Source of the DNA: Bacillota bacterium
GTDB lineage: Bacteria > Bacillota > Dethiobacteria > DTU022 > UBA8154
Reading direction: 5' to 3'
Assembly: GCA_012837615.1 (NCBI GenBank)
Contig: DUQX01000004.1
Span: 3,436 to 67,435, forward strand
DNA length: 64,000 nucleotides
Every line of letters begins with the position of its first letter. Position 1 is the stretch's first letter. Positions 1-22,034 of this stretch are shown here, in pieces. The translations under genes were made by a program, and so were the position numbers. The notes under the pieces are model-generated. The model worked only from the letters and a program-made list of their open reading frames with translations. It was not told the origin of the DNA and did not search any database.

Positions 1-183
1 TTGCCTTCTATTTCAGTTCAAAGCAATGTTTTTTCTAAAAAAGAAAAAAAGGTAATAGAAAAAATAAAAAATCTCAATCTCGTTGATATAACACCGCTGG
101 AAGCGCTCAACATGCTTTTTTCTTTGCAATCCAGGCTCCTATCAAAAAAGAAAAAAGAAAACTTTATCGAAAAGGATAGTTAA
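1..183 (+). CDS. mutS: DNA mismatch repair protein MutS, C-terminal fragment (gene begins upstream of window)
   Basis: The frame is open from base 1. The tail ...NLVDITPLEALNMLFSLQSRL resembles the MutS C-terminus, and it lies directly upstream of mutL. Confidence 0.6.
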   Translation: MPSISVQSNVFSKKEKKVIEKIKNLNLVDITPLEALNMLFSLQSRLLSKKKKENFIEKDS

Positions 184-188
184 GCAAT

Positions 189-2069
189 ATGCCTATTTAT
201 AAACTCGATAATTCTACTGCAGAAAAAATAGCTGCTGGGGAAGTGGTGGAAAACCCGGCTTCAATCGTAAAGGAGCTTGTGGAAAACGCCCTCGATGCAG
301 ATGCAAAGCGAATCAAGGTTATCCTTAAAAAAGGTGGACTCCAGGAAATTACCGTAATTGATGACGGTTCAGGAATACATGCAAACGAGTTACGTCTGGC
401 AATGGCAAGACATGCGACCAGTAAGATAAAAGGCATTGAGGATTTAGAATATATTTCCACACTTGGTTTCCGTGGTGAAGCTTTGCCGAGCATAGCTTCT
501 GTCTCAAAAATGTCTATAACTTCCCGGCATAAAAATGAAAATACCGGAGCATCCGTGTATTTAGAGGGTAACAAAGAAAAAAAATTTGAAGAGGTAGGAT
601 TCCCTACCGGAACCAGGGTTACAGTAACAGATCTCTTTTATAATACGCCGGCACGATTGAAGTTTTTAAAAAGCACTTCTGCAGAAACTGCTAAGGTATC
701 GCGAATAATTCACTTGTTGGCCCTTTCAAGGCCCGATGTTTCCTTTTCATTCATTAAGGAATCCGGGACTGCGCTGGAAACATCCGGTGATGGGCAATTA
801 ATCAACGTTATTATTCAGCTCTACGGAACGAACCTCGCTCTCGAGCTTGTACCCTTAAATTTTCAGGAGGAAGATCTTACCCTAAAAGGTTATATTAGCA
901 ATCCCTCCTTTTCGCACAATAGCAGGATTTACCAGGTTTTTTTTGTCAATAACCGTTATGTACACAATCAAATAATTAAAACCGCCCTGGATAGAAGTTA
1001 TGCAGGAATTGTTACTTCGCGTAAGTACCCGGCCGCCTTTTTATTTCTTTCAATTGACCCAAGGAAAATTGATGTGAACGTTCACCCTTCAAAAACTGAA
1101 ATTCGTTTTCATCAAGAAAACGTGGTGCAAAAATTTTTGGAACAGAGCCTTAGGCTTGCCTTTTCTCCACATTACTTTATACCCAAAATACAAAATTCAA
1201 TTAAATTGCAACCCGGCAAGGAAGGAAAGACACTGCCGGCGTCGGCGGTAAAAGAAGAAGTAGAAAAAGCAAAAAAGGATATAAAGGTAAAAAAAGTCAT
1301 AAAGGGCAATAAAACGGATGAAAGGGGAAATTTCAGCAAAAGAGAAAAAGGAGCAACTGCTCGTACCAATAATAACGTTTTTCCTGAAGAAGTTAAGGAA
1401 AACGCAACCGATAAGCATTACGGTTTACTTCAAGGCGATCAAATAAAAAAAACACCTTTAGTCTCAAATTTATCTGCAGAACTCTTTACTGGCAAATCCT
1501 TTTCCGGATCCGTAAAAGGACAGATTTTTGGAACATATATACTTTTAGAAGAAAACGATGATCTTGTTATTATTGATCAACACGCTGCACATGAAAGAAT
1601 CTTATGGGAAAAGTTGTTAGAAAGCGAGAAAAACAAAGAACATTACCGGCAGGAAATCATTCCTTTTCCCCTGGAAGTTCCATCTTTTATAGCCGAAGGA
1701 TTAAAAGATAAGATTGAATTACTTCAGGAAATTGGGTTAGAAATGGAGCAATTTGGTAATAATACTTTTATTATAAGAGCAGTTCCTTTTTTCCTCAAAG
1801 ACGTTTTTACTGCAAGTAAAATATTCTCTATCATAGAAGATCTTTTAGGGCTGGCGGCAACAGGAAGGGAATACCAAAAAGAAACGCTATTAAAGCTATC
1901 CTGCAGGGCAGCTGTTAAGGCAAACCATTTATTGACGGCGGAGGAAATTAACTCTCTGCTGGCGCAGCTCGTTCAATGCAAAAATCCCTATTATTGCCCA
2001 CACGGAAGACCCGTTATGATTAAACTTGGAAAAAATGAAATTGAAAAATATTTCAAAAGGCAGGGTTGA
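189..2069 (+). CDS. mutL: DNA mismatch repair protein MutL
   Basis: N-terminal GHKL ATPase motifs (AAGEVVENPASIVKELVENALDA, DDGSGI), a C-terminal CPHGRP motif, and a 626-aa length. Confidence 0.95.
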   Translation: MPIYKLDNSTAEKIAAGEVVENPASIVKELVENALDADAKRIKVILKKGGLQEITVIDDGSGIHANELRLAMARHATSKIKGIEDLEYISTLGFRGEALPSIASVSKMSITSRHKNENTGASVYLEGNKEKKFEEVGFPTGTRVTVTDLFYNTPARLKFLKSTSAETAKVSRIIHLLALSRPDVSFSFIKESGTALETSGDGQLINVIIQLYGTNLALELVPLNFQEEDLTLKGYISNPSFSHNSRIYQVFFVNNRYVHNQIIKTALDRSYAGIVTSRKYPAAFLFLSIDPRKIDVNVHPSKTEIRFHQENVVQKFLEQSLRLAFSPHYFIPKIQNSIKLQPGKEGKTLPASAVKEEVEKAKKDIKVKKVIKGNKTDERGNFSKREKGATARTNNNVFPEEVKENATDKHYGLLQGDQIKKTPLVSNLSAELFTGKSFSGSVKGQIFGTYILLEENDDLVIIDQHAAHERILWEKLLESEKNKEHYRQEIIPFPLEVPSFIAEGLKDKIELLQEIGLEMEQFGNNTFIIRAVPFFLKDVFTASKIFSIIEDLLGLAATGREYQKETLLKLSCRAAVKANHLLTAEEINSLLAQLVQCKNPYYCPHGRPVMIKLGKNEIEKYFKRQG

Positions 2070-3034
2070 TGGTGAGCGATAAAACAGATTTACAGCAGGA
2101 AGAGTTAATTCCTCTTTTAGTCTTGGTTGGTCCGACAGCTGTTGGCAAAACAGAAATATCAATCTCTTTATGTAAAAAACTTGGAGGTGAGGTTGTCTCT
2201 GCCGATTCCGTCCAGGTTTATCGTTACCTGGATATAGGTTCGGCAAAACCCACAATAGAGGAAAGACAGGGGATACCCCATTATTTAATCGATATCGTGG
2301 ATCCTACAGTGAATTTTACCGTTTTCGATTATCAAAATCTAGCCCGGCAATCTATCTCTGATATTTACAAAAGGGGAAAGTTGCCCGTCCTGACGGGCGG
2401 TACCGGATTATATATTAAAGCCGTAGTGGATGAATATAATTTTAGAAGCGGAAAGGTAAATCCATTAATCAGGAAACGTCTGGAAGAGATACTGGAGCTA
2501 AGAGGTAAAGAATATCTTTACCGTTTTTTACAGCAAATCGATCCTATTACCGCACAAAAAGTCCACCCAAACGATATCCGGCGTATCATGAGAGCTTTTG
2601 AATTTTACTATCTAACCGGAGAACCTATCTCACTGCAACAAAAACTCACCAAAACAAAAAAAAGCAGATACAACCTGATAATGATAGGTTTAACCACAAA
2701 AAGAAATATTCTATATGAACGGATAAATGAAAGGGCGGATCTGATGATAAAGCGGGGCTTTCTGGAAGAAGTAAAAGGATTGCTGGAAAAAGGATATAGC
2801 AGCGACTTAAAATCTCTCCAGTCCCTGGGGTACAGTCATATGATCAAATATCTGCAGGGAAAATGGGACTGGGAAAATGCGATAACCAATTTTAAAAGAG
2901 ACACAAGGCGTTTTGCAAAAAGACAATTGACCTGGTTCCGTGCTGATAAAAGAATTTTTTGGTATGAAATAGACGAACAAAGGGATTTAAATCCAATTTT
3001 GGAGAGTATTTGTTCCAGGGTAGAAGGATATTGA
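2066..3034 (+). CDS. miaA: tRNA dimethylallyltransferase MiaA (true start probably ATG at 2069)
   Basis: P-loop GPTAVGKT, the SADSVQVYRYLDIGSAKPT motif, and a 4-nt overlap with the mutL stop. Confidence 0.95.
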   Translation: MMVSDKTDLQQEELIPLLVLVGPTAVGKTEISISLCKKLGGEVVSADSVQVYRYLDIGSAKPTIEERQGIPHYLIDIVDPTVNFTVFDYQNLARQSISDIYKRGKLPVLTGGTGLYIKAVVDEYNFRSGKVNPLIRKRLEEILELRGKEYLYRFLQQIDPITAQKVHPNDIRRIMRAFEFYYLTGEPISLQQKLTKTKKSRYNLIMIGLTTKRNILYERINERADLMIKRGFLEEVKGLLEKGYSSDLKSLQSLGYSHMIKYLQGKWDWENAITNFKRDTRRFAKRQLTWFRADKRIFWYEIDEQRDLNPILESICSRVEGY

Positions 3035-3080
3035 TATCTTATAGCGAATAGAATAAACAAACCGTAGGAGGCGATAGACA

Positions 3081-3332
3081 ATGTCGAAAGGATCTTTCAA
3101 CCTTCAGGATAGCTTTCTAAATCAAATCCGAAAAGAGAATATGCTGACGACGATCTTCCTGATTAATGGATATCAAATTAAGGGAAATATCCGCAGTTTT
3201 GATAACTTTACTATTTTGCTAGATGTGGACGGAAAACAGCAGCTGGTGTACAAACACGCCGTATCAACCATTATACCCGTAAGAAATATTACAATTAATA
3301 TGGCATCTGCCGAACAACAAGGTATTTCTTAA
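3081..3332 (+). CDS. hfq: RNA chaperone Hfq
   Basis: Sm1/Sm2 motifs (FLINGYQIKGNIRSFDNFTILL ... YKHAVSTIIP) and a GGAGG RBS upstream. Confidence 0.95.
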   Translation: MSKGSFNLQDSFLNQIRKENMLTTIFLINGYQIKGNIRSFDNFTILLDVDGKQQLVYKHAVSTIIPVRNITINMASAEQQGIS

Positions 3333-3352
3333 GCTTATTCAGGGGACGCACT

Positions 3353-4612
3353 ATGGAATGGTGGCAAATAATAGAGGTAAAACCCCAAATAGTAGACATA
3401 ATATTGGCTGCAGAAGAAAAAACTGCTGAAATACATAAGGAATTTCTTGCTACTTGTTTGTTCAATCAAGCCCGGGTTTTGAAGGCCTTTCAGAAACTAA
3501 AAATTTCCGATGAGTGTTTTAACTCAAATGAGGGGTATGGTTATAACGATTATGGAAGGGAAAAGCTAGAGGAGCTTTTTGCCGAGATCTTTCAGGGTGA
3601 AGAGGCTATTGTTCGACCCCATTTGGTCTCCGGAACACATACGATCTTTTCCTGTTTTAGAGGTTTATTGCGGCCCGGAGACCGTTTAATCTCCATAACA
3701 GGAAAACCCTATGATACCCTTTTCCATGCGATAGAAACAGAAAGGGGAGGAGGGAGCTTACAGGAATGGGGCATCTCCTTTGACAGTATTGAACAGGATG
3801 ATTTTATTCTTCTAGAGGATAAGAATAAATTAAAAAAATTGCTGAGTGAACCTACCAGTGTGATATATATTCAGCGCTCAAAAGGATATAATCCTTATCG
3901 TTCATCATTAACTGTTGAAAATATCGGTAAGTTAATTAAAAAAGTTCGCCGCTTTAATCCGGAAGTAACAATATTTGTTGATAACTGTTATGGGGAATTT
4001 GTGGAAAGACAGGAGCCGCTAGAAATTGGAGCTGATGTAATCGCAGGTTCATTAATAAAAAATGTGGGAGGAGGGCTGGCTCCTACAGGAGGTTATATAG
4101 TAGGAAATAAAAAATGTATCGAAAAAATTAGTAATGCCATATCGGCTCCCGGATTGGGAAAAGAACTGGGAGCGTTTATTTATAACAAAAGGCTCTTTTT
4201 CCAGGGATTATTTATGGCACCGCACCTCACCGCCGAAGCTTTAAAGGGGGCATCTCTATTTGCCGCTGCCTTTGAAAGCTTAGGCTATAAAGTAGATCCG
4301 CGTTATGATCAAACTAGAGGGGATATAATCCAATCAATATCCCTAAAAAATAAAGAGGAACTGCAAAAAATCTGCCGAGCCGTCCAAAGCGCTTCTCCTA
4401 TTAACGCCCATATAACACCTGTGCCCGGCAGAACTGCAGGTTACGATGATCTGATATACATGGCAGCCGGGACCTTTGTGCAGGGCGCTTCGGGAGAATT
4501 TAGCGCCGATGCGCCTCTGCGTGAGCCTTATACTGTTTATATCCAGGGAGGGCTTACCTATGAGCATGTTCTTTTGGGACTGGCCGCTGTTCTTCAATCT
4601 ATCCTGGATTAA
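3353..4612 (+). CDS. Aluminium-resistance / YnbB-family PLP-dependent (Cys/Met-metabolism-like) protein
   Basis: A 419-aa protein recognised at family level (EGYGYNDYGREKLEELFAEIF..., VSGTHTI), in the typical position after hfq in Clostridia. Confidence 0.7.
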   Translation: MEWWQIIEVKPQIVDIILAAEEKTAEIHKEFLATCLFNQARVLKAFQKLKISDECFNSNEGYGYNDYGREKLEELFAEIFQGEEAIVRPHLVSGTHTIFSCFRGLLRPGDRLISITGKPYDTLFHAIETERGGGSLQEWGISFDSIEQDDFILLEDKNKLKKLLSEPTSVIYIQRSKGYNPYRSSLTVENIGKLIKKVRRFNPEVTIFVDNCYGEFVERQEPLEIGADVIAGSLIKNVGGGLAPTGGYIVGNKKCIEKISNAISAPGLGKELGAFIYNKRLFFQGLFMAPHLTAEALKGASLFAAAFESLGYKVDPRYDQTRGDIIQSISLKNKEELQKICRAVQSASPINAHITPVPGRTAGYDDLIYMAAGTFVQGASGEFSADAPLREPYTVYIQGGLTYEHVLLGLAAVLQSILD

Positions 4613-4613
4613 T

Positions 4614-5231
4614 TTAATCAATAACCCTCACCAAGCCGATTACCTTTCCCAATAAACGAACATCACTGGCAATTAGCGGTTCATAATCAGGGTTTTCCGG
4701 CTGAAGCCGCACGTAGCCAGTTTCGAGATAAAACCGTTTTACTGTTGCCTCATCACCAAGCAGAGCTACCACAATTTCACCGTTCTCCGCGGAGGGTTGC
4801 TGTCTGACGACCACAAGGTCTCCATGGAGAATACCCGCATTTTTCATGCTATCTCCTTTTACCCGCAGCAAAAAAACAGAGTCGCCTTTTACAATCTCCT
4901 CCGGAAGCGCTAGATAATTTTCGATGTTCTCTTCAGCAAATACCGGCGCTCCTGCTGTCACCTGACCTACCAGGGGAATAAGCCGCATTTTCTTTTTTGT
5001 GTTTTCAGGATGATCCAATATTTCAATTGCACGGGGTTTAGCCGGATCCCTTTTAATATAACCCTTTTTCTCCAGTGCCTTTAAATGTGCATGAACTGTA
5101 GAACTTGAACTAAGGCCCATTTTATTACATATTTCGCGAACTGAGGGGGGATAGTTTTTATGCATAACTTCTTCGGTTATATAATTCAGTATTTCCTTTT
5201 GTCGTAAAGTCAATTTTTTCAATGGAATCAT
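4614..5231 (-). CDS. lexA: LexA SOS repressor
   Basis: An N-terminal wHTH (PPSVREICNKMGLSSSSTVHAHLKALEKKGYI), the AG cleavage site (VTAGAP), and a Ser/Lys peptidase domain (GDSM ... KRF). Confidence 0.95.
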   Translation of the reverse strand: MIPLKKLTLRQKEILNYITEEVMHKNYPPSVREICNKMGLSSSSTVHAHLKALEKKGYIKRDPAKPRAIEILDHPENTKKKMRLIPLVGQVTAGAPVFAEENIENYLALPEEIVKGDSVFLLRVKGDSMKNAGILHGDLVVVRQQPSAENGEIVVALLGDEATVKRFYLETGYVRLQPENPDYEPLIASDVRLLGKVIGLVRVID

Positions 5232-5285
5232 CTACCTTTACTGTAAGCACTATTAAAATTATTATAGCATAGAAAAATAAATTAG

Positions 5286-5299
5286 CAAACATTAGTTTG
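5286..5299. promoter_or_regulatory. Candidate SOS (LexA) box, CAAACATTAGTTTG
   Basis: A palindromic AAAC-N4-GTTT about 55 nt upstream of the lexA start. It is a variant of the Firmicutes GAAC-N4-GTTC box, and a similar box lies upstream of recA. Confidence 0.45.
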
Positions 5300-5332
5300 A
5301 AGGGAACATGGATTCCTATTCATTTAGGTTAT

Positions 5333-6871
5333 TTATTTATTATTATTGTTGTAAGCAACCATATTAATCAGCTTATTAATAGCATCAAGGTAAGCTTTAA
5401 CACTAGCCTCTATTATATCCGTGCTGACTCCCCTGCCTATAATATTCTTATCTTCATGGTTAATTTTAATGGATACTTCGCCCAGGGCATCAACCCCACG
5501 AGTGACAGCTCTCAAGTTATAATTCTCCAAGCGTATATTTATTTGGGTTATTTTATCAATTGCTTTGTATGCAGCATCGATTGGCCCGGCACCGCTGCTT
5601 ATTTCCTCAAGTTTTTCCTCTCCTTTACGCAGTCGCACTACCGCTGCAGGTACAGTTTTTGTGCCGCTGATTGTTTGCAAATAATCCAATTCGTAGGTTG
5701 GTTCCGCAAATGATACATCAATAAGCAACGCTTCCAGATCTTCTTTATAGACTTCTTTCTTTTTGTCACTCAACTCTATAAACCGTTCGTAAAGCCTTTT
5801 AAATTCCTCATCGTTTAGGTTGTAACCCATGCTTTCCAATTGGTGGCGTACAGCATGCCGCCCCGATCGTGCGGTCAACACCATTTGTGCTGCCTGGCCC
5901 CCTATTAGTTCGGCATTAATTATTTCATAAGTACGCTTATCCTTAATAATTCCGTCCTGGTGTATCCCCGAAGAATGAGTAAAGGCATTCGTGCCAATAA
6001 CAGCTTTATTTATCGGTATGGGTATCCCGCTTAGTTTACTGACAGTACGACTTGTGCGATATATCTCCTGCAAGTTGATACCTGTCTCAAAGGGATAGTG
6101 ATCCTCTCTTATTTTCATAGCAACAACAATTTCCTCCAGCGAGGCGTTTCCAGCCCTCTCACCGATACCATTAATATTGCATTCTATCTGCCTGGCGCCA
6201 TTTTCCACGGCGGTAAGTGAATTAATAACGGCTAGGCCTAGATCATTATGGCAATGAACGCTGATTGTAGCTTTATTGATATTAGGAACTCTAGTATTAA
6301 TGAGATGAATTAAACGACCAAATTCCTGGGGAACAGCATATCCCACGGTGTCCGGAATATTTACAACAGTAGCACCGGCATCTATTACAGCCTCAACAAC
6401 ACGTAAAATATAATCTTCACGGGCTCTAGTAGCATCCTCCAGCGAATATTCAACATCTTGTGTTAAACTTTTGGCATACCTGACAGCCTGAACAGCCTCC
6501 TGCAGGCAAGTATCAGGATCCTTGCGCAACTTTTTCTGCATATGGATATCAGAAGCTGCAAGGAAAACATGAAGACGCGGTTTTTCGGAATCTTTTATTG
6601 AATCCCAAGCACAATCAATATCCTCTTTTACAGCCCGCGCAAGAGCCGCTATAACAGGGCCCTTAACTTTTCTTGATATTTGCTGCACAGCGCGAAAATC
6701 CCCCGGAGAAGAAATGGGAAAACCTGCTTCAATAACATCAACATTTAAACGGGCAAGCTGAAGTGCAATTTTTAATTTTTCACTGGCGTTTAGTTTGGCT
6801 CCAGGCGTTTGTTCCCCATCTCTTAAAGTACTGTCAAAAATCATTATTCTTTCTTTCTTCATTCCATCCAC
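5333..6871 (-). CDS. leuA: 2-isopropylmalate synthase (start may be the ATG at 6862)
   Basis: The FDSTLRDGEQ HMGL-like TIM barrel, HCHNDLGLA, the C-terminal LeuA dimerisation/regulatory domain, and a preceding T-box leader. Confidence 0.85.
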   Translation of the reverse strand: MDGMKKERIMIFDSTLRDGEQTPGAKLNASEKLKIALQLARLNVDVIEAGFPISSPGDFRAVQQISRKVKGPVIAALARAVKEDIDCAWDSIKDSEKPRLHVFLAASDIHMQKKLRKDPDTCLQEAVQAVRYAKSLTQDVEYSLEDATRAREDYILRVVEAVIDAGATVVNIPDTVGYAVPQEFGRLIHLINTRVPNINKATISVHCHNDLGLAVINSLTAVENGARQIECNINGIGERAGNASLEEIVVAMKIREDHYPFETGINLQEIYRTSRTVSKLSGIPIPINKAVIGTNAFTHSSGIHQDGIIKDKRTYEIINAELIGGQAAQMVLTARSGRHAVRHQLESMGYNLNDEEFKRLYERFIELSDKKKEVYKEDLEALLIDVSFAEPTYELDYLQTISGTKTVPAAVVRLRKGEEKLEEISSGAGPIDAAYKAIDKITQINIRLENYNLRAVTRGVDALGEVSIKINHEDKNIIGRGVSTDIIEASVKAYLDAINKLINMVAYNNNNK

Positions 6872-6893
6872 CTTCTCTCTTAATTAATCCACT

Positions 6894-6930
6894 AAAAAAC
6901 CTTTCGTCAAAATAACATAGAGACGAAAGG
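6894..6930 (-). terminator. Intrinsic terminator of the T-box leader
   Basis: A 9-bp stem, CCTTTCGTC / GACGAAAGG, followed by TTTTTT on the minus strand. The 5' arm overlaps the antiterminator/T-box region. Confidence 0.8.
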
Positions 6931-7150
6931 TTTTCCCTCGCGGTACCACTCTACTTGACAGCACAGATCTACTGTCCTCTTTAAGTGTTCTTTTTTTTAA
7001 CGGTAAAGAACCGTCCTGACCTATTCTCACTACCAAGTGATTTCAGCAGGCTCCTCACAGGGGAGTTTCAGAAAAAAGAAGGGTTGCACTTTCACCTTTC
7101 AGCAACTCTCTGCACACTTCTTAATTTTCCTACTGGTCCTGTTCATCGTA
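6894..7150 (-). promoter_or_regulatory. T-box leader RNA (tRNA-sensing riboswitch), probable Leu specifier
   Basis: On the minus strand I see GATGA (K-turn), AGTA, the AGAGAG bulge, a specifier region GAAACUCC (CUC at 7063-7065), and the T-box AGAGTGGTACCGCGAG (core at 6939-6949). A terminator follows. Confidence 0.85.
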
Positions 7151-7261
7151 TTTGATTTATACCAATTTAATTTACATCAATTTAAAATATAGCATATACA
7201 TTTTTTTTATTCCTGTCAACCCCATCAGAGAAATTTAAATTAAAACACAGCAAAATTAATA

Positions 7262-7289
7262 ACGTCCGATAATATATATTATGTAAACT
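7262..7289 (+). other. dif: dif site (XerC/XerD = CodV/RipX chromosome-dimer resolution site)
   Basis: ACGTCCGATAA-TATATA-TTATGTAAACT matches 25/28 of the B. subtilis dif ACTTCCTAGAATATATATTATGTAAACT (from memory). It also shares the ATAAT-N-TATATTATGT-AA core with E. coli dif, and the gene-strand bias switches here. Confidence 0.8.
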
Positions 7290-7736
7290 AAAAGAAGGGG
7301 CACAATAAATACCGCTTAAATAGCGGAATCCGACCAAACCGAATAGTTTACGTTTTGTATATCACTTGCCCGGCCCTGTATAAATATGCTTATGTTGCTG
7401 TACGGTTTTTGAGTAATATTATAAACCGTTCCCATGTATAATTGATTTTTTTGCTCCGGGCCTTCGCTAAGGGTTAATACTCAAGCATCAAGCAATTTCA
7501 TTCAAAACCATCATGGGATCATTTTAAAATTTCCGTCTATATTTTATACTGCCTGTGATTATAGTTGCTACATTATCAATGAATAAACCAAAAATATTGA
7601 TGCTTTGCTTACAATAAATATTACTATAAGGTTCAGGTGCTCATATGTTACTAAATTCTTTCTGCATCTGAAACAAAAAAGCAAGCAGCATAAAAACTAC
7701 TAAAGCACCCCTCTCCCCCTATTTCCTTTTTCCACG

Positions 7737-7749
7737 ATATTATGTAAAC
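7737..7749 (+). repeat. Truncated dif copy (3 nt of central region + 10 nt of XerD-side arm), direct repeat of 7276-7288
   Basis: An exact 13-nt repeat, ATATTATGTAAAC. The XerC-arm position is unrelated (TTCCTTTTTCC). Confidence 0.6.
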
Positions 7750-7788
7750 AAGTATCTTTTACGTAAATATATACTTGATAACCATTTT

Positions 7789-9162
7789 TTACTGTACTGC
7801 AGCCTGCAACACTTTTGCCGCGATCGGCCCGGCAACACTGGCTCCCGAGCCGCCGTTTTCAATAACCACAACAAAAGCAAGGGGATAATCATCCCTATCC
7901 AAAAAGCCGGCGAACCAAGCATGGGGCTTCTTATCCCCGCCCACCTGAGCAGTACCTGACTTGGCACAGAGCTCAAGGCCTCTGAAATTATCCTCACCGT
8001 ACTCACTAATAGTATTGTTCCTCATCATCCTTTTCAGCCTTTGGGCTGTTTCAGACGAAAGCACCCTTTTTTTTTCAACGGCGGAAAAGTTTATCAATGA
8101 GAATATTCCCTTATCCTTCACTATCCTCGGTGTTATACGGACGCCATCATTTGCGATGGCACCCATATACGCCATAAAATTCAAAGGATTGGCCGTATTG
8201 GTATATTGTCCTATTCCGGACCAGGCCAGATCTGCCCCCACTGCATCCGATGCATCGAATCTACCCACCGCGGTTCTAATACCATCCACCTCCAAACTTG
8301 TATTAAATCCTGCTGCATGGGCATATTCCTGCAGTATTCCGGCTCCAAGATCAGAGGCGATCTGTGCAAAGGCCGCATTACACGAACAGGCAAGTGCCCT
8401 CTCCAGGTTAACCGAACCGTGGACCGTATGGCAGGTTACCACATCCCCCCCTACCTGCAGCCCCCCTTCACAATGGTAAAGGATATGTTCGATGTTATCA
8501 AAATGCTCAATCGCCGCAGCAGCGGTCACCAATTTAAACACCGAGCCGGGCGTATAAGTCGCGGACAGAAAACGGTTAATATATACTCCCTGATATTTTT
8601 CAGGTTCCGCCTCTATGTCGGGGGGGGTCTCCGGATCAAAAGATGGCGAACTTACCATACAAAGAATCTCTCCTGTCCGATAGTTATACACCCCCACCGC
8701 TCCCTTGCGACCGCTCAGTTCTCCATACGCAACAGAGCACAAATCGGCATCCAGGTTCAGGGTCAGATCTCTGCCTGCCCCCGCCTGCTTATGAAAACTA
8801 TAAACCCCGTTTATCATGTCCCAGCCGCTCAATCGTTCCCTGAAGGCCACCCGGGCCCCGGTCATCACATTGCCATACAAGTCCCCCGTGGCATGCATAA
8901 CGGCGGTGCGCACTGCCCTGTCAGTATGGAATTTTACCTCCCCATCCTTTACCTGACAAAGAATACTGCCCCTGCGGTCATAAATATTTCCACATGACAC
9001 TAATTTTCCTTCTGCATAAAGATGCTGGTTTGTGGGATAATGCGCCCAGGCAGAAGCATTGCTTACATACTTTGCCGTGAAGATAAAAAGGCCAAACACA
9101 AACAGCAGAGCAAAAAAAAGCAGTACAGAGGCACGGCCCAGCAACAGTTTCAAATTATTCAC
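7789..9162 (-). CDS. Class B penicillin-binding protein (PbpA/PBP2-like transpeptidase)
   Basis: An N-terminal TM anchor, plus SxxK (S207-VFK), SxN (S260-CN) and KSG (K401-SGT) motifs at canonical spacing. Confidence 0.9.
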   Translation of the reverse strand: MNNLKLLLGRASVLLFFALLFVFGLFIFTAKYVSNASAWAHYPTNQHLYAEGKLVSCGNIYDRRGSILCQVKDGEVKFHTDRAVRTAVMHATGDLYGNVMTGARVAFRERLSGWDMINGVYSFHKQAGAGRDLTLNLDADLCSVAYGELSGRKGAVGVYNYRTGEILCMVSSPSFDPETPPDIEAEPEKYQGVYINRFLSATYTPGSVFKLVTAAAAIEHFDNIEHILYHCEGGLQVGGDVVTCHTVHGSVNLERALACSCNAAFAQIASDLGAGILQEYAHAAGFNTSLEVDGIRTAVGRFDASDAVGADLAWSGIGQYTNTANPLNFMAYMGAIANDGVRITPRIVKDKGIFSLINFSAVEKKRVLSSETAQRLKRMMRNNTISEYGEDNFRGLELCAKSGTAQVGGDKKPHAWFAGFLDRDDYPLAFVVVIENGGSGASVAGPIAAKVLQAAVQ

Positions 9163-9167
9163 CTCAT

Positions 9168-10976
9168 TCAGAAACGATTATCGGCAGATTTTATCAGCGC
9201 CAGCAGCCCCCAGGAGGCCACCATAGAGGAGCCCCCCCTGGAAACGAAGGGCACGGTTATCCCCGTCAGAGGAATTATATCTACGGAGCCCAAAACATTC
9301 AAGGCTATCTGGATCAGGAAGATGGAAGCTGCTCCGCAAGCCGTAATGGCATAAAAAGAGGAGCGGCAATCCTTTGTCAGAAACACGGCATAAAAGGCTA
9401 GAAACACAGGAACTAAAATCGCAGTTAGGGCTACCAGCAAACCCCATTCCTCTGCGAGCAATCCAAAAATCAGGTCGGTATCAGCCGCTGCAACCTGGGC
9501 CAAATATCCTTCTCCGCCGCCTACTCCCAAAAGGCCACCACTGGCAGCGGCAATCATGGTACGGGTCTGCTGGTAGCCAGAGGTGCTGGCATGCTCCCAT
9601 ACCTTTCCCCATACAGCAAAACGGGAGGCAATATACGGCAAAAAAGACACCGCCGCTACAGTTCCCAATGCAGCTCCTGTTACAGCCAGAGCAATGGTCC
9701 GCATATCCCCGGAACGCATGAAAGCGATGACAATAAAGGTGCCGAAAAAAACCACCACCGTGCCAAAATCCCTCATCAGGACCAGAGCCCCGATGCACAC
9801 CGCTGAAAAGCCGATAAACGCGCTCATATCTCGGGTTGTAAGGAGCTTATCCAGAGTTGCTGTACCGACCAGTACAAAAGCAATCTTGACAAACTCAGAC
9901 GGTTGGAAAGTAACAAAACCCAGGTCAAGCCAGTTCTTTGCCCCGAAATGCGTTTCCCCCATAGCCAGATTCAATATCAGAAGCACCAAAGCAACTGCTG
10001 CCAGGAAATGCTTAAGTCTCTCCGCCCGCTCCAGGTCGTGAAGTATCACTAGCAGAACAGTATACGCCGCAAACCCTAGGAGAATTGCTGTCAGCTGCGT
10101 TAAAAGCGAATCCGAAGCCGCCGAGGCAGTAACGGAAAGGCTTAAACCGCAGAGAAAATAGCAGAGTAGCTCAAGTTCCAGGTGTTTCCAGCCGCACCAA
10201 CTCATGATACTGTAATGTACACATTCGGCAAGAATGAAAAGGAAAAAGCTCAGCGGCACCACTGGGTTGGCTTCTACTCCCATGGAAAAGAAAAGCTGAA
10301 GCCCCCCCAAGACTTGAAAAAGCAGAATCAAAAAGAAGGTCTGCCTGGAGCCGGACCGTCTCATGGCCAATGGAGCTCTTACAGCATTACTATTCTGAGA
10401 AATTTCGTGGAAGTAACCCGCTCCTACGTCCTGCCGCAAGGGCGCTTCGAAACTATTCTGCTGCTGCGGCAACCCACCTTTCTCTCTATTTGCCAGAACA
10501 AGCTCCATCTTCACCCCCCCGATGGAGATGATATCTCCGTTCCTGAGAATCTCCGTCGCTTCTATCCTCCTCCCGTTCACCTCTACCCCATTCTTTGATT
10601 TCAGATCAGCAATAGACCATTTCCCGTTGCGAAATGTCAGCACAGCGTGACTTCGGGATACAAAGGGCAGGTCGATAACGATATCCGCTAATCTGCTTCT
10701 TCCAATGGAGTTTTCCCAGTGTTGCAAAGGGACGCTTGTGCCGTCCTGCATATGCAGATGTCCCCAAACAATCTTTCTTCCCCTATTTTGCAAAAGAGGG
10801 AGAATGCATCTCAAAAAAATGGTAATAGCCAAAACCGGAAAAATCCATCTCACTAAAAAAGTATATAAATCCGTTACCAGCCCGAAATGGGTAAAAAAGC
10901 TCCCTGCGCTGCATGAAAGCTCTTCAAATAGTATCCAGATCCTTTTCAATTTTTCCAAAAAAACAACACTGCTCAT
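9168..10976 (-). CDS. FHA-domain-fused SEDS protein (FtsW/RodA/SpoVE-family peptidoglycan polymerase)
   Basis: An N-terminal TM hairpin and an FHA domain at aa ~68-160 (nt 10497-10775; GRSRLADIVIDLPFVSRSHAVL...NGVEVNGRRI). The polytopic SEDS core ends ...PLTGITVPFVSRGGSSM. A 5-nt gap separates it from the PBP gene. Confidence 0.85.
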   Translation of the reverse strand: MSSVVFLEKLKRIWILFEELSCSAGSFFTHFGLVTDLYTFLVRWIFPVLAITIFLRCILPLLQNRGRKIVWGHLHMQDGTSVPLQHWENSIGRSRLADIVIDLPFVSRSHAVLTFRNGKWSIADLKSKNGVEVNGRRIEATEILRNGDIISIGGVKMELVLANREKGGLPQQQNSFEAPLRQDVGAGYFHEISQNSNAVRAPLAMRRSGSRQTFFLILLFQVLGGLQLFFSMGVEANPVVPLSFFLFILAECVHYSIMSWCGWKHLELELLCYFLCGLSLSVTASAASDSLLTQLTAILLGFAAYTVLLVILHDLERAERLKHFLAAVALVLLILNLAMGETHFGAKNWLDLGFVTFQPSEFVKIAFVLVGTATLDKLLTTRDMSAFIGFSAVCIGALVLMRDFGTVVVFFGTFIVIAFMRSGDMRTIALAVTGAALGTVAAVSFLPYIASRFAVWGKVWEHASTSGYQQTRTMIAAASGGLLGVGGGEGYLAQVAAADTDLIFGLLAEEWGLLVALTAILVPVFLAFYAVFLTKDCRSSFYAITACGAASIFLIQIALNVLGSVDIIPLTGITVPFVSRGGSSMVASWGLLALIKSADNRF

Positions 10977-11020
10977 GCTATCTTCCCTCTATAGAAGTAC
11001 TGTCTCTGCTAGCATATCTC

Positions 11021-12229
11021 TTACACATACTTTTTTTCTATTTGGTTTTTACCATTGAATTTTGCCTTATATAAAAGCCTGTCAACTTCCCTTAACAGTT
11101 CAGTTAAATTATTACTTCCCAATTCAGTAACACCGCCGCTAATCGTTACTTTTAAGTTGTTCCGCCACTTTAATTCCCAAATTTTACCTCGAATTCGCTC
11201 CACAATAGAGTATGCATCTTTCAAACTTGTATCAGGAAGCACAATTAAAAATTCCTCACCTCCAAAGCGTCCTGCTATATCATTCTGCCTCAAATTATTG
11301 TTTATTGATTCACCTACCCTCTTGAGCACGTAATCCCCATATAAATGTCCATATGTATCGTTGATCATCTTGAAGTTGTCAATATCAATCAAAGCTACGG
11401 CAAGCTTTCCTTTGTTCTCTTGAGATATTTCAATCTCATCCTCCAGGCGAGCTGTAATATACATTTTATTATAAGTACCTGTCAAAACATCGGTAATAGA
11501 TAATTTTTCCAGCTTTTGTTTTTCTTCATATAGTAATTTGTTTAAACCTTCTACCTTTTCCTTCGATTTTTTAAGTTCCGCATTATTCTTTTCCAATATT
11601 TTGTTCTTGGCCTCAATCTCCTTTTTTTGTTCCTCCAGCTTAGAAAAGTACTGGTCTGACCGTTGACGTTCCTTGAAATAACTATCTACAAAAACAGCAA
11701 AAAATACCGCATTGGAAACCAGGCAAACAAAAAACCCAAAGGATGAATCTAAACACCTTGTCAGTTGCGAACCATACCCCACAACAAAATTCGGCGCTTG
11801 ATATTCAATAGCTATAAGGGTAGCGGCAAGCACTGCAAAAAATACAAAAACAATACCTCTTTTGAATCCGTCAAGCAATATCGCGATGATCCCTGCATTG
11901 ATAATCATATAGTATGGGATGCTGCCATAAGACCCTCCATTAATAATCCACAAAGCAGGGAATAGAATAAAACTCAACATTAATACGGTTATCAAAGCCG
12001 GGAGCTCGTACTTTTTACCAATAATAGAAAACAGGTATAGCACTATTGATATAACACCGCACCCAATAGTCAAAACTACGGTAACTACACCTAATCCAAG
12101 AATATAGTTTATTATACTCGCAGAAAATGACATGCAAATTCCTACCAGGGCTATTACATTAAATAGCCGATGCCTGAAGGAAAATTCATTTTCATCACCG
12201 ATAAGGGTTGAGATTATTTTAGCCTTCAT
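11021..12229 (-). CDS. Membrane-anchored diguanylate cyclase (GGDEF domain, GGEEF active site, RxxD I-site)
   Basis: About six N-terminal TM helices and a coiled coil. The GGDEF domain carries RQND-IAGRF-GGEEF. Confidence 0.9.
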   Translation of the reverse strand: MKAKIISTLIGDENEFSFRHRLFNVIALVGICMSFSASIINYILGLGVVTVVLTIGCGVISIVLYLFSIIGKKYELPALITVLMLSFILFPALWIINGGSYGSIPYYMIINAGIIAILLDGFKRGIVFVFFAVLAATLIAIEYQAPNFVVGYGSQLTRCLDSSFGFFVCLVSNAVFFAVFVDSYFKERQRSDQYFSKLEEQKKEIEAKNKILEKNNAELKKSKEKVEGLNKLLYEEKQKLEKLSITDVLTGTYNKMYITARLEDEIEISQENKGKLAVALIDIDNFKMINDTYGHLYGDYVLKRVGESINNNLRQNDIAGRFGGEEFLIVLPDTSLKDAYSIVERIRGKIWELKWRNNLKVTISGGVTELGSNNLTELLREVDRLLYKAKFNGKNQIEKKYV

Positions 12230-12421
12230 AAATTTTCTCCTGGTTATCTTGCAATTTTATTACTACTTCTGAAGACTGGGAATTAGGATACAATCTATAC
12301 AAAAAGAATGCAAGGTTTATTTGAGGATCGAGATATCGTTAGTTTTATCTCAAATGCCATTAAACTGTTGTTGTTGTTAATTCTGTAAATATGCTACCGG
12401 AGGATGGGCTGATGATTGTTT

Positions 12422-12616
12422 CAATTGTGGTAACTGCTCAGCTATACGCAGGATTGTCACCCTGAGCGTTAGCAAAGAATCCTTTGCCTTTAGAGGAGCG
12501 AAGGATCTTCACTCTTCATTACGTTCAGAGTAACAAGTCACTTTCATATGTGACTTTTCAGACACCTGCCGTTCCCTACGCCCTGTTTATGTTTTGCTCT
12601 GAGTAGTTACCAATTG
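12422..12616. repeat. Nested inverted-repeat element (MITE/REP-like)
   Basis: The outer IR is CAATTGTGGTAACTGCTCAG (12422-12441) paired with CTGAGTAGTTACCAATTG (12599-12616). The inner imperfect palindrome is TTGTCACCCTGAGCG...GCGAAGGATC...CGTTCAGAGTAACAAG (12453-12537). There is also a hairpin at 12535-12556. Confidence 0.5.
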
Positions 12617-12690
12617 CGAATGTATTCCAAAACATGCTTCATACCCTTTAGAAAGCCATAATCTTGTCAATAAACCCATATAGCTTGCCA

Positions 12691-13272
12691 TTAAAGTTCA
12701 CCCTTTAAGCCCAGCTCTTCCGCTGCCCTTTGCATTCCCCGGATGGTTTCCTCAATAACTTCAGTTAAATCCATCCCCAGGAGTTTTGCACCTTCTTCAA
12801 TAATCCCCCGATCAACTCCGGCCGCAAAACTCTTCTGTTTCATTTTCTTTTTTACCGACTTGGCGGTCAAGTCCATAATACTCCGGCTCGGACGCATGAG
12901 AACCGTAGCCACAATTAGACCCGTTAACTCGTCAATGGTATAGAGAACCTTCTCCATTCTTTCTTGCGGTTCTACGTCGGAACAGATCTTCCAGCCGTGG
13001 CTCTGTATTGCCCTAATGTAATCTTCCGGCCAGCCCTCATCGGTAAGAATCTCCCGCACTTTGCTGCAATGTTCTTCGGGATATTTTTCATAATCCAAAT
13101 CATGCGTAAGCCCGATTACACGCCATTTTTCCAGATCTTCTTCGCCAAATTTTTCAGCAAAATGCACCATAACCGCTTCTACCGCCAGGGCATGCTTGAG
13201 CAATGCATCGTTTTTGTTGTACTTCTTTAATAACGCCAGCGCCTCTTCTCTGGTAGGTTTTTTCTTTTCCAT
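12691..13272 (-). CDS. HD-domain hydrolase (COG2316-like HD superfamily protein)
   Basis: The HD motif (LTHDLDY) and a conserved 193-aa family architecture. Confidence 0.8.
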   Translation of the reverse strand: MEKKKPTREEALALLKKYNKNDALLKHALAVEAVMVHFAEKFGEEDLEKWRVIGLTHDLDYEKYPEEHCSKVREILTDEGWPEDYIRAIQSHGWKICSDVEPQERMEKVLYTIDELTGLIVATVLMRPSRSIMDLTAKSVKKKMKQKSFAAGVDRGIIEEGAKLLGMDLTEVIEETIRGMQRAAEELGLKGEL

Positions 13273-13545
13273 ATTGCCACCCTTTCTTTTTTTTCTATCG
13301 ATTTACACCAATATTTCATTAAGCAAAAAATCCGCATAATCTATCAATACCATCTTTACAATACGATATTCATTTTATTGCTCCCTTTACTTTATTCATA
13401 GCAACCGCAAGCCTCCATTCTCCAACCTTCCTCGGCAAGCTATTCCCGAGATTGTAATTTATTAAATTATAGCTCTTATCTTTTCATCTAGCAAGCCGGC
13501 AAAAGTCAACCGAAGAAGCAGGAGTAGAATTCTTATATTTAATTC

Positions 13546-13576
13546 TTGACATTAACGTAACGTAAAGGTTTATACT
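13546..13576 (+). promoter_or_regulatory. MerR-type promoter: TTGACA - 19-bp spacer - TATACT
   Basis: A consensus -35 at 13546-13551 and a -10 at 13571-13576 with a suboptimal 19-bp spacer typical of MerR-family-controlled promoters. It lies 24 nt upstream of the merR-family ATG. Confidence 0.55.
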
Positions 13577-13599
13577 ATAAAGAGCAGGGAGGAAAAGTT

Positions 13600-14364
13600 A
13601 TGGAATATACAGTGCAAAAACTTGCCAGATTAGCTGGTGTCAGCCCGAGAACACTTAGATATTATGATGAAATTGGACTTCTTAAGCCGGCTAGAATCAA
13701 TTCATCAGGTTATCGTATTTATGGTGGAAAAGAAGTTGATAGATTGCAACAAATTTTATTTTATCGCGAGCTTGGTGTGAACTTGGATGAGATTAGAATT
13801 ATCCTGGACTCTACATCTTTTAATAAAGCCAGGGCTCTGCGAAAACATCGCTTTAGACTCCTGGCAAAAAAGAAACAGATTGAATTATTAATTGCTAATG
13901 TCGAAAAAACAATAGCAATGACAGAAGGGAGAATAACAATGAGCGATAAGGAAAAATTTGAGGGTTTTAAACAAAAGATAATCGATGACAATGAGCTGAA
14001 GTACGGCAAAGAAATCAGGGAAAAATATGGAGATGATGCCGTTGACCGTTCAAATCAAAAGATAAAGCAAATGACCGAAAAACAGTATACAGCTGTTGAA
14101 AAGTTGTCAAATGAGGTAAATAATGCAATAAAGATAGCCTTTGAAAACGGGGATCCTTCTGCTGAATTAGCACAGAAAGCATGCGAACTGCATAGGCAGT
14201 GGTTACTGTATTTTTGGGATGAATACTCAAAAGAGGCACATATGGCACTTGTTCAGGGATATGTAGATGATGAGAGATTTACAGCATATTATGATAAAAT
14301 TGCACCTGGGTGTACAGCGTTTCTACGTGATGCAATGAGAATTTATACCGGTATTAAAGCATAA
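13600..14364 (+). CDS. MerR-family transcriptional regulator with TipAS/Mta-type C-terminal sensor domain
   Basis: An N-terminal MerR HTH (YTVQKLARLAGVSPRTLRYYDEIGLL) and a C-terminal TipAS-like domain (YVDDERFTAYYDKIAPGCTAFLRDAM). Confidence 0.9.
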   Translation: MEYTVQKLARLAGVSPRTLRYYDEIGLLKPARINSSGYRIYGGKEVDRLQQILFYRELGVNLDEIRIILDSTSFNKARALRKHRFRLLAKKKQIELLIANVEKTIAMTEGRITMSDKEKFEGFKQKIIDDNELKYGKEIREKYGDDAVDRSNQKIKQMTEKQYTAVEKLSNEVNNAIKIAFENGDPSAELAQKACELHRQWLLYFWDEYSKEAHMALVQGYVDDERFTAYYDKIAPGCTAFLRDAMRIYTGIKA

Positions 14365-14382
14365 GGCAAGCTGGTATCCATT

Positions 14383-14411
14383 AAAAAAAACAGAAATCCA
14401 AAAGATTTCTG
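14383..14411 (-). terminator. Intrinsic terminator (reads as hairpin + T8 on minus strand)
   Basis: An 8-bp stem, CAGAAATC / GATTTCTG, flanked by A8 on the plus strand, downstream of the 14456-14764 gene. Confidence 0.65.
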
Positions 14412-14917: not shown

Positions 14918-15217
14918 TTACACTTTTTTATCAAGGGGAATACTGCGGTTTCCATCATTAAAAGGTTCGTAAGAACGTTCCAGCACTTTAAAAAGATGCT
15001 TTTCCCCATGAAGCCCCTTAAATTGCAATAAAAGGTACTCTCCTTTTTTAACCGGTATATCCACTTTGGCAAGAATATCCCGTCCCTGCATATTCAAAAG
15101 AGCATATCCCTTTTTAATATCCTTTACCAGGGCCAATATTTTACGAGAATTATTGTGAAACACCTGTTGATCCCGGCGTAAATATTTTTTAATTTTTCTG
15201 ATTAGATCACTTAACAT
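14918..15217 (-). CDS. Hypothetical protein (99 aa)
   Basis: An ORF 43 nt downstream of the HD-GYP gene on the same strand. I recognise no family. Confidence 0.5.
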   Translation of the reverse strand: MLSDLIRKIKKYLRRDQQVFHNNSRKILALVKDIKKGYALLNMQGRDILAKVDIPVKKGEYLLLQFKGLHGEKHLFKVLERSYEPFNDGNRSIPLDKKV

Positions 15218-21902: not shown

Positions 21903-22034
21903 CGCCGGAAACCGGCAGGCCCGTTAAATATTTTTCTGCCGGGAAACCGTTTGGAAAGCCCCGACTTCTTTAACCGGACAGCAATACCATATTTATAATA
22001 TGCTTATGTATCCCCCAGGGATAATATGCAAAGC

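Follow-up and report, generated by a model that had tools for sequence, protein, structure and literature searches.

In the 64,000-nt stretch of DNA analysed here (hereafter the window; contig DUQX01000004.1 of assembly GCA_012837615.1, positions 3,436-67,435, forward strand), the DNA to the right of the chromosomal dif site at 7262-7289 has a history separate from that of the DNA to its left, and on balance we favour the view that dif anchors a hypervariable right flank which is laterally replaced among relatives, with dif itself (plus about 10-40 nt) forming the left crossover. In the window this flank would be a 5.4-kb segment (7300-12685) comprising a non-coding spacer, a lone XerD-arm half-site, a resident-type pair of peptidoglycan genes and a GGDEF gene, where the sister species has an isochorismatase gene; the peptidoglycan genes would coalesce with their counterparts in a neighbouring clade within the genus, and the half-site would be no scar of the event but an older element under selection, carried inside the exchanged DNA. 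If this is correct, dif is, in an anaerobic Bacillota-like lineage, a recurrent crossover point for flank replacement among related species, and thus more than the dimer-resolution site and phage landing pad of Vibrio and Neisseria, with core cell-wall genes among the exchanged DNA. The conserved half-site, which lies outside the published architecture of XerD-binding sites (XDS), would furthermore be a concrete candidate for XerD binding, FtsK/SpoIIIE stalling and SMC unloading outside Bacillus. Should this view fail, the locus would be an ordinary terminus whose flank evolves fast.

In a scan of species-representative genomes anchored on leuA, the window species grouped among Dethiobacteria-like Bacillota metagenome-assembled genomes (MAGs), and the comparisons presented below are based mostly on metagenome contigs, with 187 loci fetched, individual relatives being designated by L numbers. 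An earlier reading of the window made from the sequence alone (the sequence-only reading) had allowed for a contig mis-join. We recovered 12 contigs, from independent assemblies and at least 7 different samples, that are at least 99.8% identical to the window and colinear with it over the parts covered, and 7 of them, from at least 6 samples, span the entire region; mis-join or mis-assembly is therefore ruled out.

The dif site (ACGTCCGATAATATATATTATGTAAACT, plus strand) displays a 28-bp layout with an 11-bp XerC arm (ACGTCCGATAA), a 6-bp centre (TATATA) and an 11-bp XerD arm (TTATGTAAACT), and is identical at 25 of 28 positions to the experimentally confirmed dif of Bacillus subtilis (ACTTCCTAGAATATATATTATGTAAACT), the three differences all falling in the XerC arm and the whole central region and XerD arm being identical. 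It is single-copy, being the sole 28-mer match at up to 7 mismatches within the window; the 28-mer recurs with 1-5 mismatches on the same (upstream) side of leuA in about 30 related species, and more than 120 metagenome contigs, with GC contents of 0.29-0.63, contain its 25-mer core. The genes left of dif are mutL, miaA, (hfq) and a Met-gamma-lyase-like gene, all on the plus strand, followed by lexA and leuA on the minus strand. The cumulative GC skew reaches its maximum at about 4.0-4.5 kb and gene orientation converges at 4612/4614; since both switches sit at about 4.5 kb, dif lies 2.7 kb from the apparent terminus. Judged by these features, 7262-7289 is a genuine chromosomal dif at the replication terminus, at which recombination by XerC/XerD is predicted. 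The conserved left flank is marked by the T-box leader of leuA (6916-7155, minus strand; Rfam RF00230, 119.4 bits, E 7e-27), near which a promoter-like TTGACA-17-TATGCT is found at 7219-7191. On the other side, a purine tract (AAAAGAAGGG, 7290-7299, plus strand) abuts the XerD arm and is kept in relatives both with and without the half-site. The site thus resembles the B. subtilis dif, used by CodV/RipX (XerC/XerD) for dimer resolution, in its 11+6+11 organization, its single copy and its location at the GC-skew switch, but differs from it in the clade-specific purine tract and in the lone XerD arm that follows 448 nt on.

The closest relative found, in a protein search with leuA, was L194, the contig of the sister species (leuA 95% identical in amino acids), in which the order of features is gltX - GT4 - HD_5 - 102aa - HD193 - isochorismatase - dif - T-box - leuA - lexA. 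Window positions 2..7299 align to L194 -7298..+38 at 90.3% identity, and this homology ends 10 nt past the XerD arm, the purine tract being its last portion; it resumes at window position 12686, 5 nt below the HD193 stop codon (blastn, 12686..13573 against L194 +798..+1685). Between the two homology ends the window has 5,386 nt (7300-12685), versus 759 nt in L194, which lacks the spacer, the half-site, both peptidoglycan genes and the GGDEF gene and carries an isochorismatase gene instead; since the window in turn lacks this gene, the event was one of replacement rather than of simple insertion. Both flanks of L194 stand at a similar distance from the window (synonymous divergence, dS, 0.26-0.51), so the L194 contig is not chimeric. 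The sequence-only reading had expected empty sites of the form leuA leader - dif - GGDEF; L194 does lack 7300-12685, but it reads leuA leader - dif - isochorismatase - HD, the GGDEF diguanylate cyclase gene (11021-12229, minus strand; GC 0.36, native-like) being itself part of the missing segment. The congeners have no such gene at this position, and the right end of the window-specific segment (12230-12685) is without a dif-like site.

Divergence of the coding sequences on the two sides of dif is incongruent. In the left-flank core genes, the window and L194 are separated by a dS of 0.32 and a nonsynonymous divergence (pN) of 0.039, and L194 and L020 by a dS of 1.00. The trio L019/L020/L026 represents a neighbouring clade within the genus; its core dS to the window is 1.05-1.12 and its core pN 0.095-0.10, compared with 0.35-0.37 and 0.041-0.045 within the trio. 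In the peptidoglycan genes the corresponding values are 0.37-0.47 (dS) and 0.067-0.088 (pN) between window and trio, and 0.29-0.32 and 0.069-0.080 within the trio. Thus, the ratio of window-trio to trio-trio divergence is about 1.0-1.4 for the pair versus 2.2 (pN) to 3 (dS) for the core, and the pN ratio is free of a codon-bias effect. Given the absence of the segment in L194 and this shallow coalescence with the trio, lateral acquisition or replacement in the window lineage is indicated, and loss in L194 is less likely than such an event.

A second, independent junction at dif was observed in L062 (JGI 3300053716, a 228-kb contig). To the left of dif, up to the last base before it, this locus is 99.2% identical to L026 and 98.8% to L135; to the right, starting at dif, it matches L019 at 100% identity over 1.9 kb and at 93-100% to about +6.5 kb, after which identity falls to 88-89%. 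L019 and L026 are 89.9% identical left of dif. The switch in ancestry hence lies between -1 and +38 (locus positions ~17156-17260; dif at 17200-17227). Included in the introgressed DNA are a YolD-like gene, two ABC genes, FTCD_C, DUF554 and half of the penicillin-binding protein (PBP) gene.

The spacer also departs from the expected relationships. Between the window and L135 it is 92% identical (K 0.084), above the 88% of their T-box leaders, and between L135 and L019 and between L135 and L063 it is 64% and 47% identical, respectively (the latter equal to a shuffled control), though the T-box leaders are 93% identical in both pairs; on these identities the spacer tree is incongruent with the species tree. 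Strain-level single-nucleotide polymorphism (SNP) density in the dif-to-half-site block is 2-6/kb, not below that of the flanks, which makes it unlikely that constraint accounts for the 92% identity. The window and L135 are homologous (90%) from dif up to 7755, 6 nt beyond the half-site, and homology with L063/L062 in the PBP gene begins at about 7782-7793, at its 3' end. The two are separated by a 26-nt junction filler (7756-7781), at which congeners have FTCD_C, with or without DUF554, ABC genes and a YolD-like gene; the pair adjoins the half-site because FTCD_C (or FTCD_C and DUF554), held by the congeners, is missing in the window. The genes directly right of the module differ in every lineage.

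The half-site (7737-7750, plus strand; ATA + TTATGTAAAC(A)) is located 461 nt from dif, in the terminus region, and has neither a XerC arm nor an inverted inner arm. As the sequence-only reading had reported, the 13-mer ATATTATGTAAAC, composed of 3 central-region and 10 XerD-arm bases, is found exactly and in direct orientation at 7276-7288 and 7737-7749, with an unrelated XerC-arm position at the second copy (TTCCTTTTTCC, 1/11 identical to the dif arm; centre ACGATA, 3/6). No further match at up to 1 mismatch is present in the 64 kb, and a common repeat was rejected as an explanation, with two copies against 0.12 expected from shuffles. The XerD arm is matched at 10/11 positions in the window and at 11/11 in several relatives. 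TTATGT[A/T]AAC occurs in the same orientation, at 280-665 bp from dif on its XerD side, in nine species that belong to a single Dethiobacteria subclade (the window, L135/L026, L019/L062, L020/L063/L187, L022, L023, L024, L028 and L093); the XerD arm plus 1-3 adjoining central-region bases is retained in 8 of the 9 copies, and a XerC-like arm in none. Conversely, the half-site is absent from L021, L027 and L194, from the more distant leuA-linked group, and from about 118 unrelated loci bearing the same dif core. In four of the nine species (L022, L023, L024 and L028) no SEDS/PBP genes adjoin it, and between L062 and L019 sequence identity passes straight through it. Since it is kept in nine species, some of them without the gene pair, the half-site is old and is not the junction of this island.

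Across the nine species the half-site 10-mer has a mean top-base frequency of 0.96, versus 0.57 and 0.52 in its flanks, and the 10-11-mer is intact in all of them while the interior of the spacer is saturated (47-51% identity between genera, versus 46% in a shuffled control). Because of this contrast we consider that the half-site, as far as its conservation pattern tells, is maintained by selection. The tract that directly precedes it (7706-7731, plus strand), C-rich and then T-rich (CCCCTCTCCCCCTATTTCCTTTTT), has a similar pyrimidine counterpart in all eight relatives' copies. In L023 two tandem half-sites stand 22 bp apart (locus coordinates 4111-4144; TTATGTAAACCAGTCATTTTTATTATGTAAACTAGTCATT), a local duplication of the XerD-arm unit. 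An inverted XerD-arm-like TTATGT[A/T]AAC(C) is found in the 3' coding end of FTCD_C in L062 (12755-12765), L063 (11946-11956) and L135 (+540 from dif), about 46-50 nt from the half-site in L063 and L135.

The XDS, described in B. subtilis and Staphylococcus aureus as dif-like sites that bind XerD and unload SMC (Karaboja et al., 2021, as presented in PMC9226527 and PMC11840125), offer the nearest functional parallel. Like them, the half-site is a conserved dif-like sequence of the terminus region that possesses a genuine XerD arm and lacks a XerC arm, and by this analogy its conservation suggests XerC-independent XerD binding; most plausibly, its candidate function is to bind XerD alone, in an XDS-like or FtsK/SpoIIIE-related role. 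In the architecture outlined in PMC9226527, however, an XDS has a degenerate centre of 5-6 bp followed by the five innermost bp of an inverted second XerD arm, an inverted inner arm that the half-site does not have: these inverted bases ([C/G/T]ATAA) appear in none of the nine species, and their place is taken here by TTTCC (with a 6-bp centre) or TTCCA (with a 5-bp centre). By the same accounts XDS are several and spread over ter, whereas here a single site stands 0.3-0.65 kb from dif. A canonical XDS was thus rejected, the half-site departing from the published architecture, and XDS-like palindromes elsewhere in the 64 kb occur only at near-chance frequency. A promoter was likewise rejected: the minus strand reads TTTACG-17-CATAAT, promoter-like sites are no more frequent than chance predicts, and relatives do not conserve the -35.

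The interval between dif and the half-site (7289-7736) measures 448 nt, one more than the 447 bp first given for it, and was correctly described as lacking open reading frames (ORFs) of 60 aa or more, the longest one wholly inside having 39 aa; a 16-aa ORF after the purine tract is common only to the nearest relatives. The spacer proper (7300-7736) begins the segment missing in L194. A known or structured RNA was rejected, with no Rfam match in the spacer (the sole Rfam match is the T-box outside it) and fold z-scores of -0.76 and -0.28; so was a phage or plasmid origin of 7262-7790, which has no match among 50,697 phage and 72,556 plasmid records. The purine tract after dif, in its longer form (AAAAGAAGGGGCAC, 7290-7303), is complementary to the C-rich tract at 7706-7720, and the two pair in the minimum free energy structure of the minus strand, though not significantly; in distant relatives such as L049 the purine and C-rich halves form a compact terminator hairpin beside dif. 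The purine tracts were also checked for likeness to FtsK-orienting polar sequences (KOPS) and SpoIIIE recognition sequences (SRS): purine-rich heptamers are biased to the leading strand, a bias confounded with the coding strand, and elsewhere on the XerD side of dif GAAGGGG favours the bottom strand 12:1. Palindromic dif-core look-alikes are found at 7379-7395 (TATAA-ATATGC-TTATGT; inside the spacer and common to L135) and at 21994-22009 (TATAA-TATGC-TTATGT), with about 0.7 per window expected by chance.

The two peptidoglycan genes occupy a GC-rich block (7789-10976) starting 39 nt right of the half-site. The unusual composition noted by the sequence-only reading is real: GC in 500-nt windows is 0.47-0.52 in the block and 0.33-0.37 in the adjacent flank windows (centred at 6751-7750 and 10751-12250), and the block has long antisense ORFs (172 and 263 aa). 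One gene encodes a PbpA-type class B PBP, a transpeptidase (7789-9162, minus strand; 457 aa, or 454 from the next start; PF00905, 3.2e-50), and the other, lying 5 nt upstream on the same strand, an FHA + SEDS (FtsW/RodA/SpoVE) peptidoglycan polymerase (9168-10976, minus strand; 602 aa; PF00498, 1e-19, residues 90-153; PF01098, 4.5e-59, residues 289-599), together forming an adjacent SEDS-class B PBP pair. The best relatives in the PDB are PbpA-type chains for the PBP (4JBF, and M. tuberculosis PbpA 3UN7/3LO7) and FtsW 8P1U and RodA 6BAR/6PL5 for the SEDS protein; the FHA domain is most like FhaB/FipA in NCBIfam, below the cut-off, and the pair falls below all NCBIfam equivalog cut-offs (ftsW 196.6 versus 337.5, pbp2_mrdA 193.6 versus 455). 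The fused FHA-SEDS form is not novel, as 5,762 homologues at E<=1e-3 show it to be widespread in Clostridia-like lineages. In actinobacteria, the cell-wall cluster is ordered fhaA-fhaB-pstP-rodA-pbpA-pknA-pknB. The pair resembles this cluster, and RodA-PBP2 (PDB 6PL5), in the adjacency of a SEDS polymerase and a PbpA-type class B PBP and in the FHA (phosphothreonine-binding) module; it differs in that FHA is fused to SEDS and that the operon is without kinase or phosphatase.

The sequence-only reading had also regarded the pair as possible foreign cargo, an interpretation which the homologues contradict. The top 120 form a graded series, its nearest members falling in the window's own class: congeners at 86, 86, 84 and 81% identity, soda-lake MAGs and Ca. 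Contubernalis alkaliaceticus at 70-67%, and named Dethiobacteria and other Clostridia-like taxa at 63-59%, with other orders (e.g., Anaerovorax) appearing only at 61% or less. L062, L063 and L187 hold the pair at the same locus with a GC content of 0.50-0.52, the congener order being HD_5 ... (MerR in L062) ... AlaDH - FHA/SEDS - PBP - (DUF554) - FTCD_C - (ABC, ABC, YolD-like) - half-site - spacer - dif - leuA, and their AlaDH, FTCD_C and ABC genes are likewise GC-rich. In Ca. Contubernalis the pair is at an unrelated locus, with no dif within the 21 kb retrieved, and its PBP gene is still GC-rich (0.489 versus 0.40). On such sequence comparisons the pair is an ordinary resident-type operon. 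In the distant relative L060 (positions 1-3847; leuA 64%) an FHA-SEDS/PBP pair, 53%/61% identical in amino acids and of native GC (0.42-0.44), is found about 1.1 kb from dif on its XerD side, with a metallophosphoesterase gene between pair and dif.

An origin of the pair in a distant GC-rich donor, arriving by another route and landing near dif by chance, appears highly improbable to us. Its composition would speak for such an origin: GC is 0.500 and GC at third codon positions (GC3) 0.505 in the PBP gene, 0.494 and 0.532 in the SEDS gene, versus means of 0.418 +/- 0.034 and 0.393 +/- 0.048 over 49 window ORFs, with GC3 residual z values of 2.4-3.2 and a codon shift (CTG 0.35 versus 0.21, GTG 0.39 versus 0.18). 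But a distant donor is not indicated, given the graded series, whose closest named members are Dethiobacteria and Ca. Contubernalis, the equally GC-rich orthologues in congeners and in Ca. Contubernalis, and two unrelated window genes with the same bias, namely 22156-23265 (OAD_beta-like, GC3 0.523, residual z 3.0) and 12691-13272 (HD-domain, GC3 0.497, z 2.6), which are as GC3-rich as the pair. A scenario that we also hold to be unlikely, and one closer to what was originally proposed, is the classical integrative mobile element exploiting Xer (IMEX), in which XerCD integrated one or two circular elements, namely the 448-nt spacer, the SEDS-PBP block or both, at dif and left a functional dif and a degenerate hybrid site. 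Compared with CTX-phi, VGJ-phi and TLC-phi of Vibrio, the gonococcal genetic island and EludIMEX-1, the locus is alike in that DNA absent from the closest relative starts at dif (10 nt from the XerD arm in L194) and in that a full and a partial dif, sharing 13 nt, stand in direct orientation, as expected of integrase-less elements, flanking only the 448-nt spacer; the highly similar window-L135 block (92%), which starts at dif, ends 6 nt beyond the half-site and conflicts with the species tree, would also fit. Degenerate sites of described IMEX, however, keep the XerC arm and centre and diverge in the XerD arm (PMC5357621, PMC9226527), and here the polarity is reversed, the copy keeping the XerD side and 1/11 of the XerC arm. 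Against integration speak also that the half-site is older than the event, being present in nine species of which four are without the pair; that its right flank is unlike that of the empty site; and that no site exists at the far end, the absence of a third dif-like junction at the right edge, already remarked upon in the sequence-only reading, having been borne out by a scan at up to 9/28 mismatches and by a search for arm-level matches at the block boundaries in the window, L062 and L063. Neither the circle junction (CCACGATATTATGTAAACTAAAAGAAGG) nor the deletion junction (CCGATAATATATATTATGTAAACAAGTATC) was found in the 187 loci; all 12 strain-level contigs carry the occupied site, a precise empty dif appearing in none; the segment holds no phage, replication or transfer genes, its cargo being of housekeeping type, and for 7262-7790 no phage or plasmid relative was found. 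Finally, alternative segments were replaced between congeners with no element added, as the absence of the sister's isochorismatase gene from the window indicates. What survives of the proposed Xer-mediated insertion is hence the separate history of the DNA right of dif, documented by L194, the peptidoglycan gene divergence and L062, and not the classical IMEX with a truncated dif as its scar. Still less probable, in our estimation, is a XerD-only cassette exchange, a mirror-image IMEX with XerD-first recombination needing the XerD arm and XerD-side central homology at the second site: the second site does keep these in 8 of 9 copies, the high-identity window-L135 block is bounded by dif and half-site, and its SNP density argues against constraint, but the mechanism has no precedent, L062/L019 identity passes through the half-site, the right-hand break in the window is equally explained by deletion of FTCD_C, and no circle or empty junctions were found among the 187 loci. 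More broadly, there is only a small chance that in this Dethiobacteria clade dif is the entry point of an undescribed Xer-dependent exchange pathway with a second site keeping only the XerD arm; such a pathway would carry segments flanking the terminus from one related species to another, here with a peptidoglycan polymerase/transpeptidase pair on board, and would be the mirror image of known IMEX attachment sites and the first in Bacillota-like bacteria. The pdif (XerC/D-site) modules of Acinetobacter plasmids are comparable in that gene modules delimited by Xer-type sites are shuffled between replicons, but their sites are complete, of alternating orientation and on plasmids, unlike the one chromosomal dif plus direct half-site found here (PMC5790767).

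Rather unlikely, though the most serious of the competing explanations, is that everything is vertical: module and pair would be ancestral and lost in L194, the incongruent distances would come from rate variation, codon constraint and assembly chimeras, and the half-site would represent a decaying relic or else resemble a promoter or terminator by chance. Three congeners do carry the pair at this locus and share the HD_5/MerR/HD flanks, GC3-rich genes show lowered dS generally (as with HD193, whose dS between species is depressed), the half-site minus strand has its promoter-like reading, and the dif-flanking contigs are metagenomic. Yet the pN ratios (1.0 versus 2.2) carry no codon-bias effect; the switch in L062 from 99% to 100% identity within 38 nt, with a return to 88-89% at 6.5 kb, is hard to obtain by chimerism because the right side is itself a 93-100% mosaic and no copy of L019; a neutral relic would not stay intact over 10-11 nt in nine lineages amid neighbours at 0.52-0.57; and the -35 is not conserved and promoter counts are at chance. 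We therefore return to lateral replacement of the right flank with its left crossover at dif, for which XerCD at dif plus a homologous crossover further right would be the most economical mechanism. The data show that dif is authentic, that the half-site is conserved, that the segment is present in the window and absent from L194, that the peptidoglycan genes diverge incongruently, and where the ancestry junctions lie; that XerCD rather than RecA made this crossover, that XerD binds the half-site, and the direction of transfer are points that we infer. Several observations weigh against this view. The sister species is represented by a single contig from a short-read Logan assembly (SRR8925717), and loss in L194, not gain in the window, would give the same presence/absence pattern. 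The GC3-rich HD193 gene has a dS of 0.55 between L194 and L062 versus 1.0 in the core, so codon bias may partly lower the dS of the pair. RecA acting on the 36-38-nt identical island of dif and its flank would produce the same junction, and non-homologous DNA left of dif would pile the ends of recombination tracts at dif in any case. The segment is no simple copy of any sampled relative, since no sampled putative donor clade has a GGDEF gene at this position. As for the half-site, it is dispensable, L021 and L027 being without it, it does not conform to the published XDS architecture, and binding of XerD to a site with no partner arm is proposed from its sequence.

Further variation was noted around this locus. 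On the right flank, a second presence/absence difference concerns a MerR/TipAS-type regulator (13600-14364) which, together with flanking intergenic DNA (13573-14384), is missing from L194; the MerR gene is found in congeners L062/L186, with a dS of 0.64 to the window, and a nearby small ORF (14918-15217, 99 aa) may also differ in L194. On the left side, non-coding inserts of variable size abut the XerC arm: the window has none (0 nt), whereas L021 has about 30 nt, L020 about 150 nt and L019/L135 about 370 nt; the DNA left of dif corresponds to 7223-7261 in the window, -192..-1 in L020 and -411..-1 in L019/L135. Each of these inserts has a G-rich tract of the GGAGGGAGGGG type, and the inverted TTATGTTAC is also present in L135 and L019. 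In the unrelated metagenome loci L068, L072, L079 and L178, an inverted XerD arm stands 22-38 nt right of dif, which represents another kind of dif-adjacent XerD-arm repeat. Lastly, six IMG/VR viral contigs (L188-L193) each contain one exact dif 23-mer (CCGATAATATATATTATGTWAAC); these contigs may represent junctions between prophage and host, or else Xer-dependent phages that infect other hosts.

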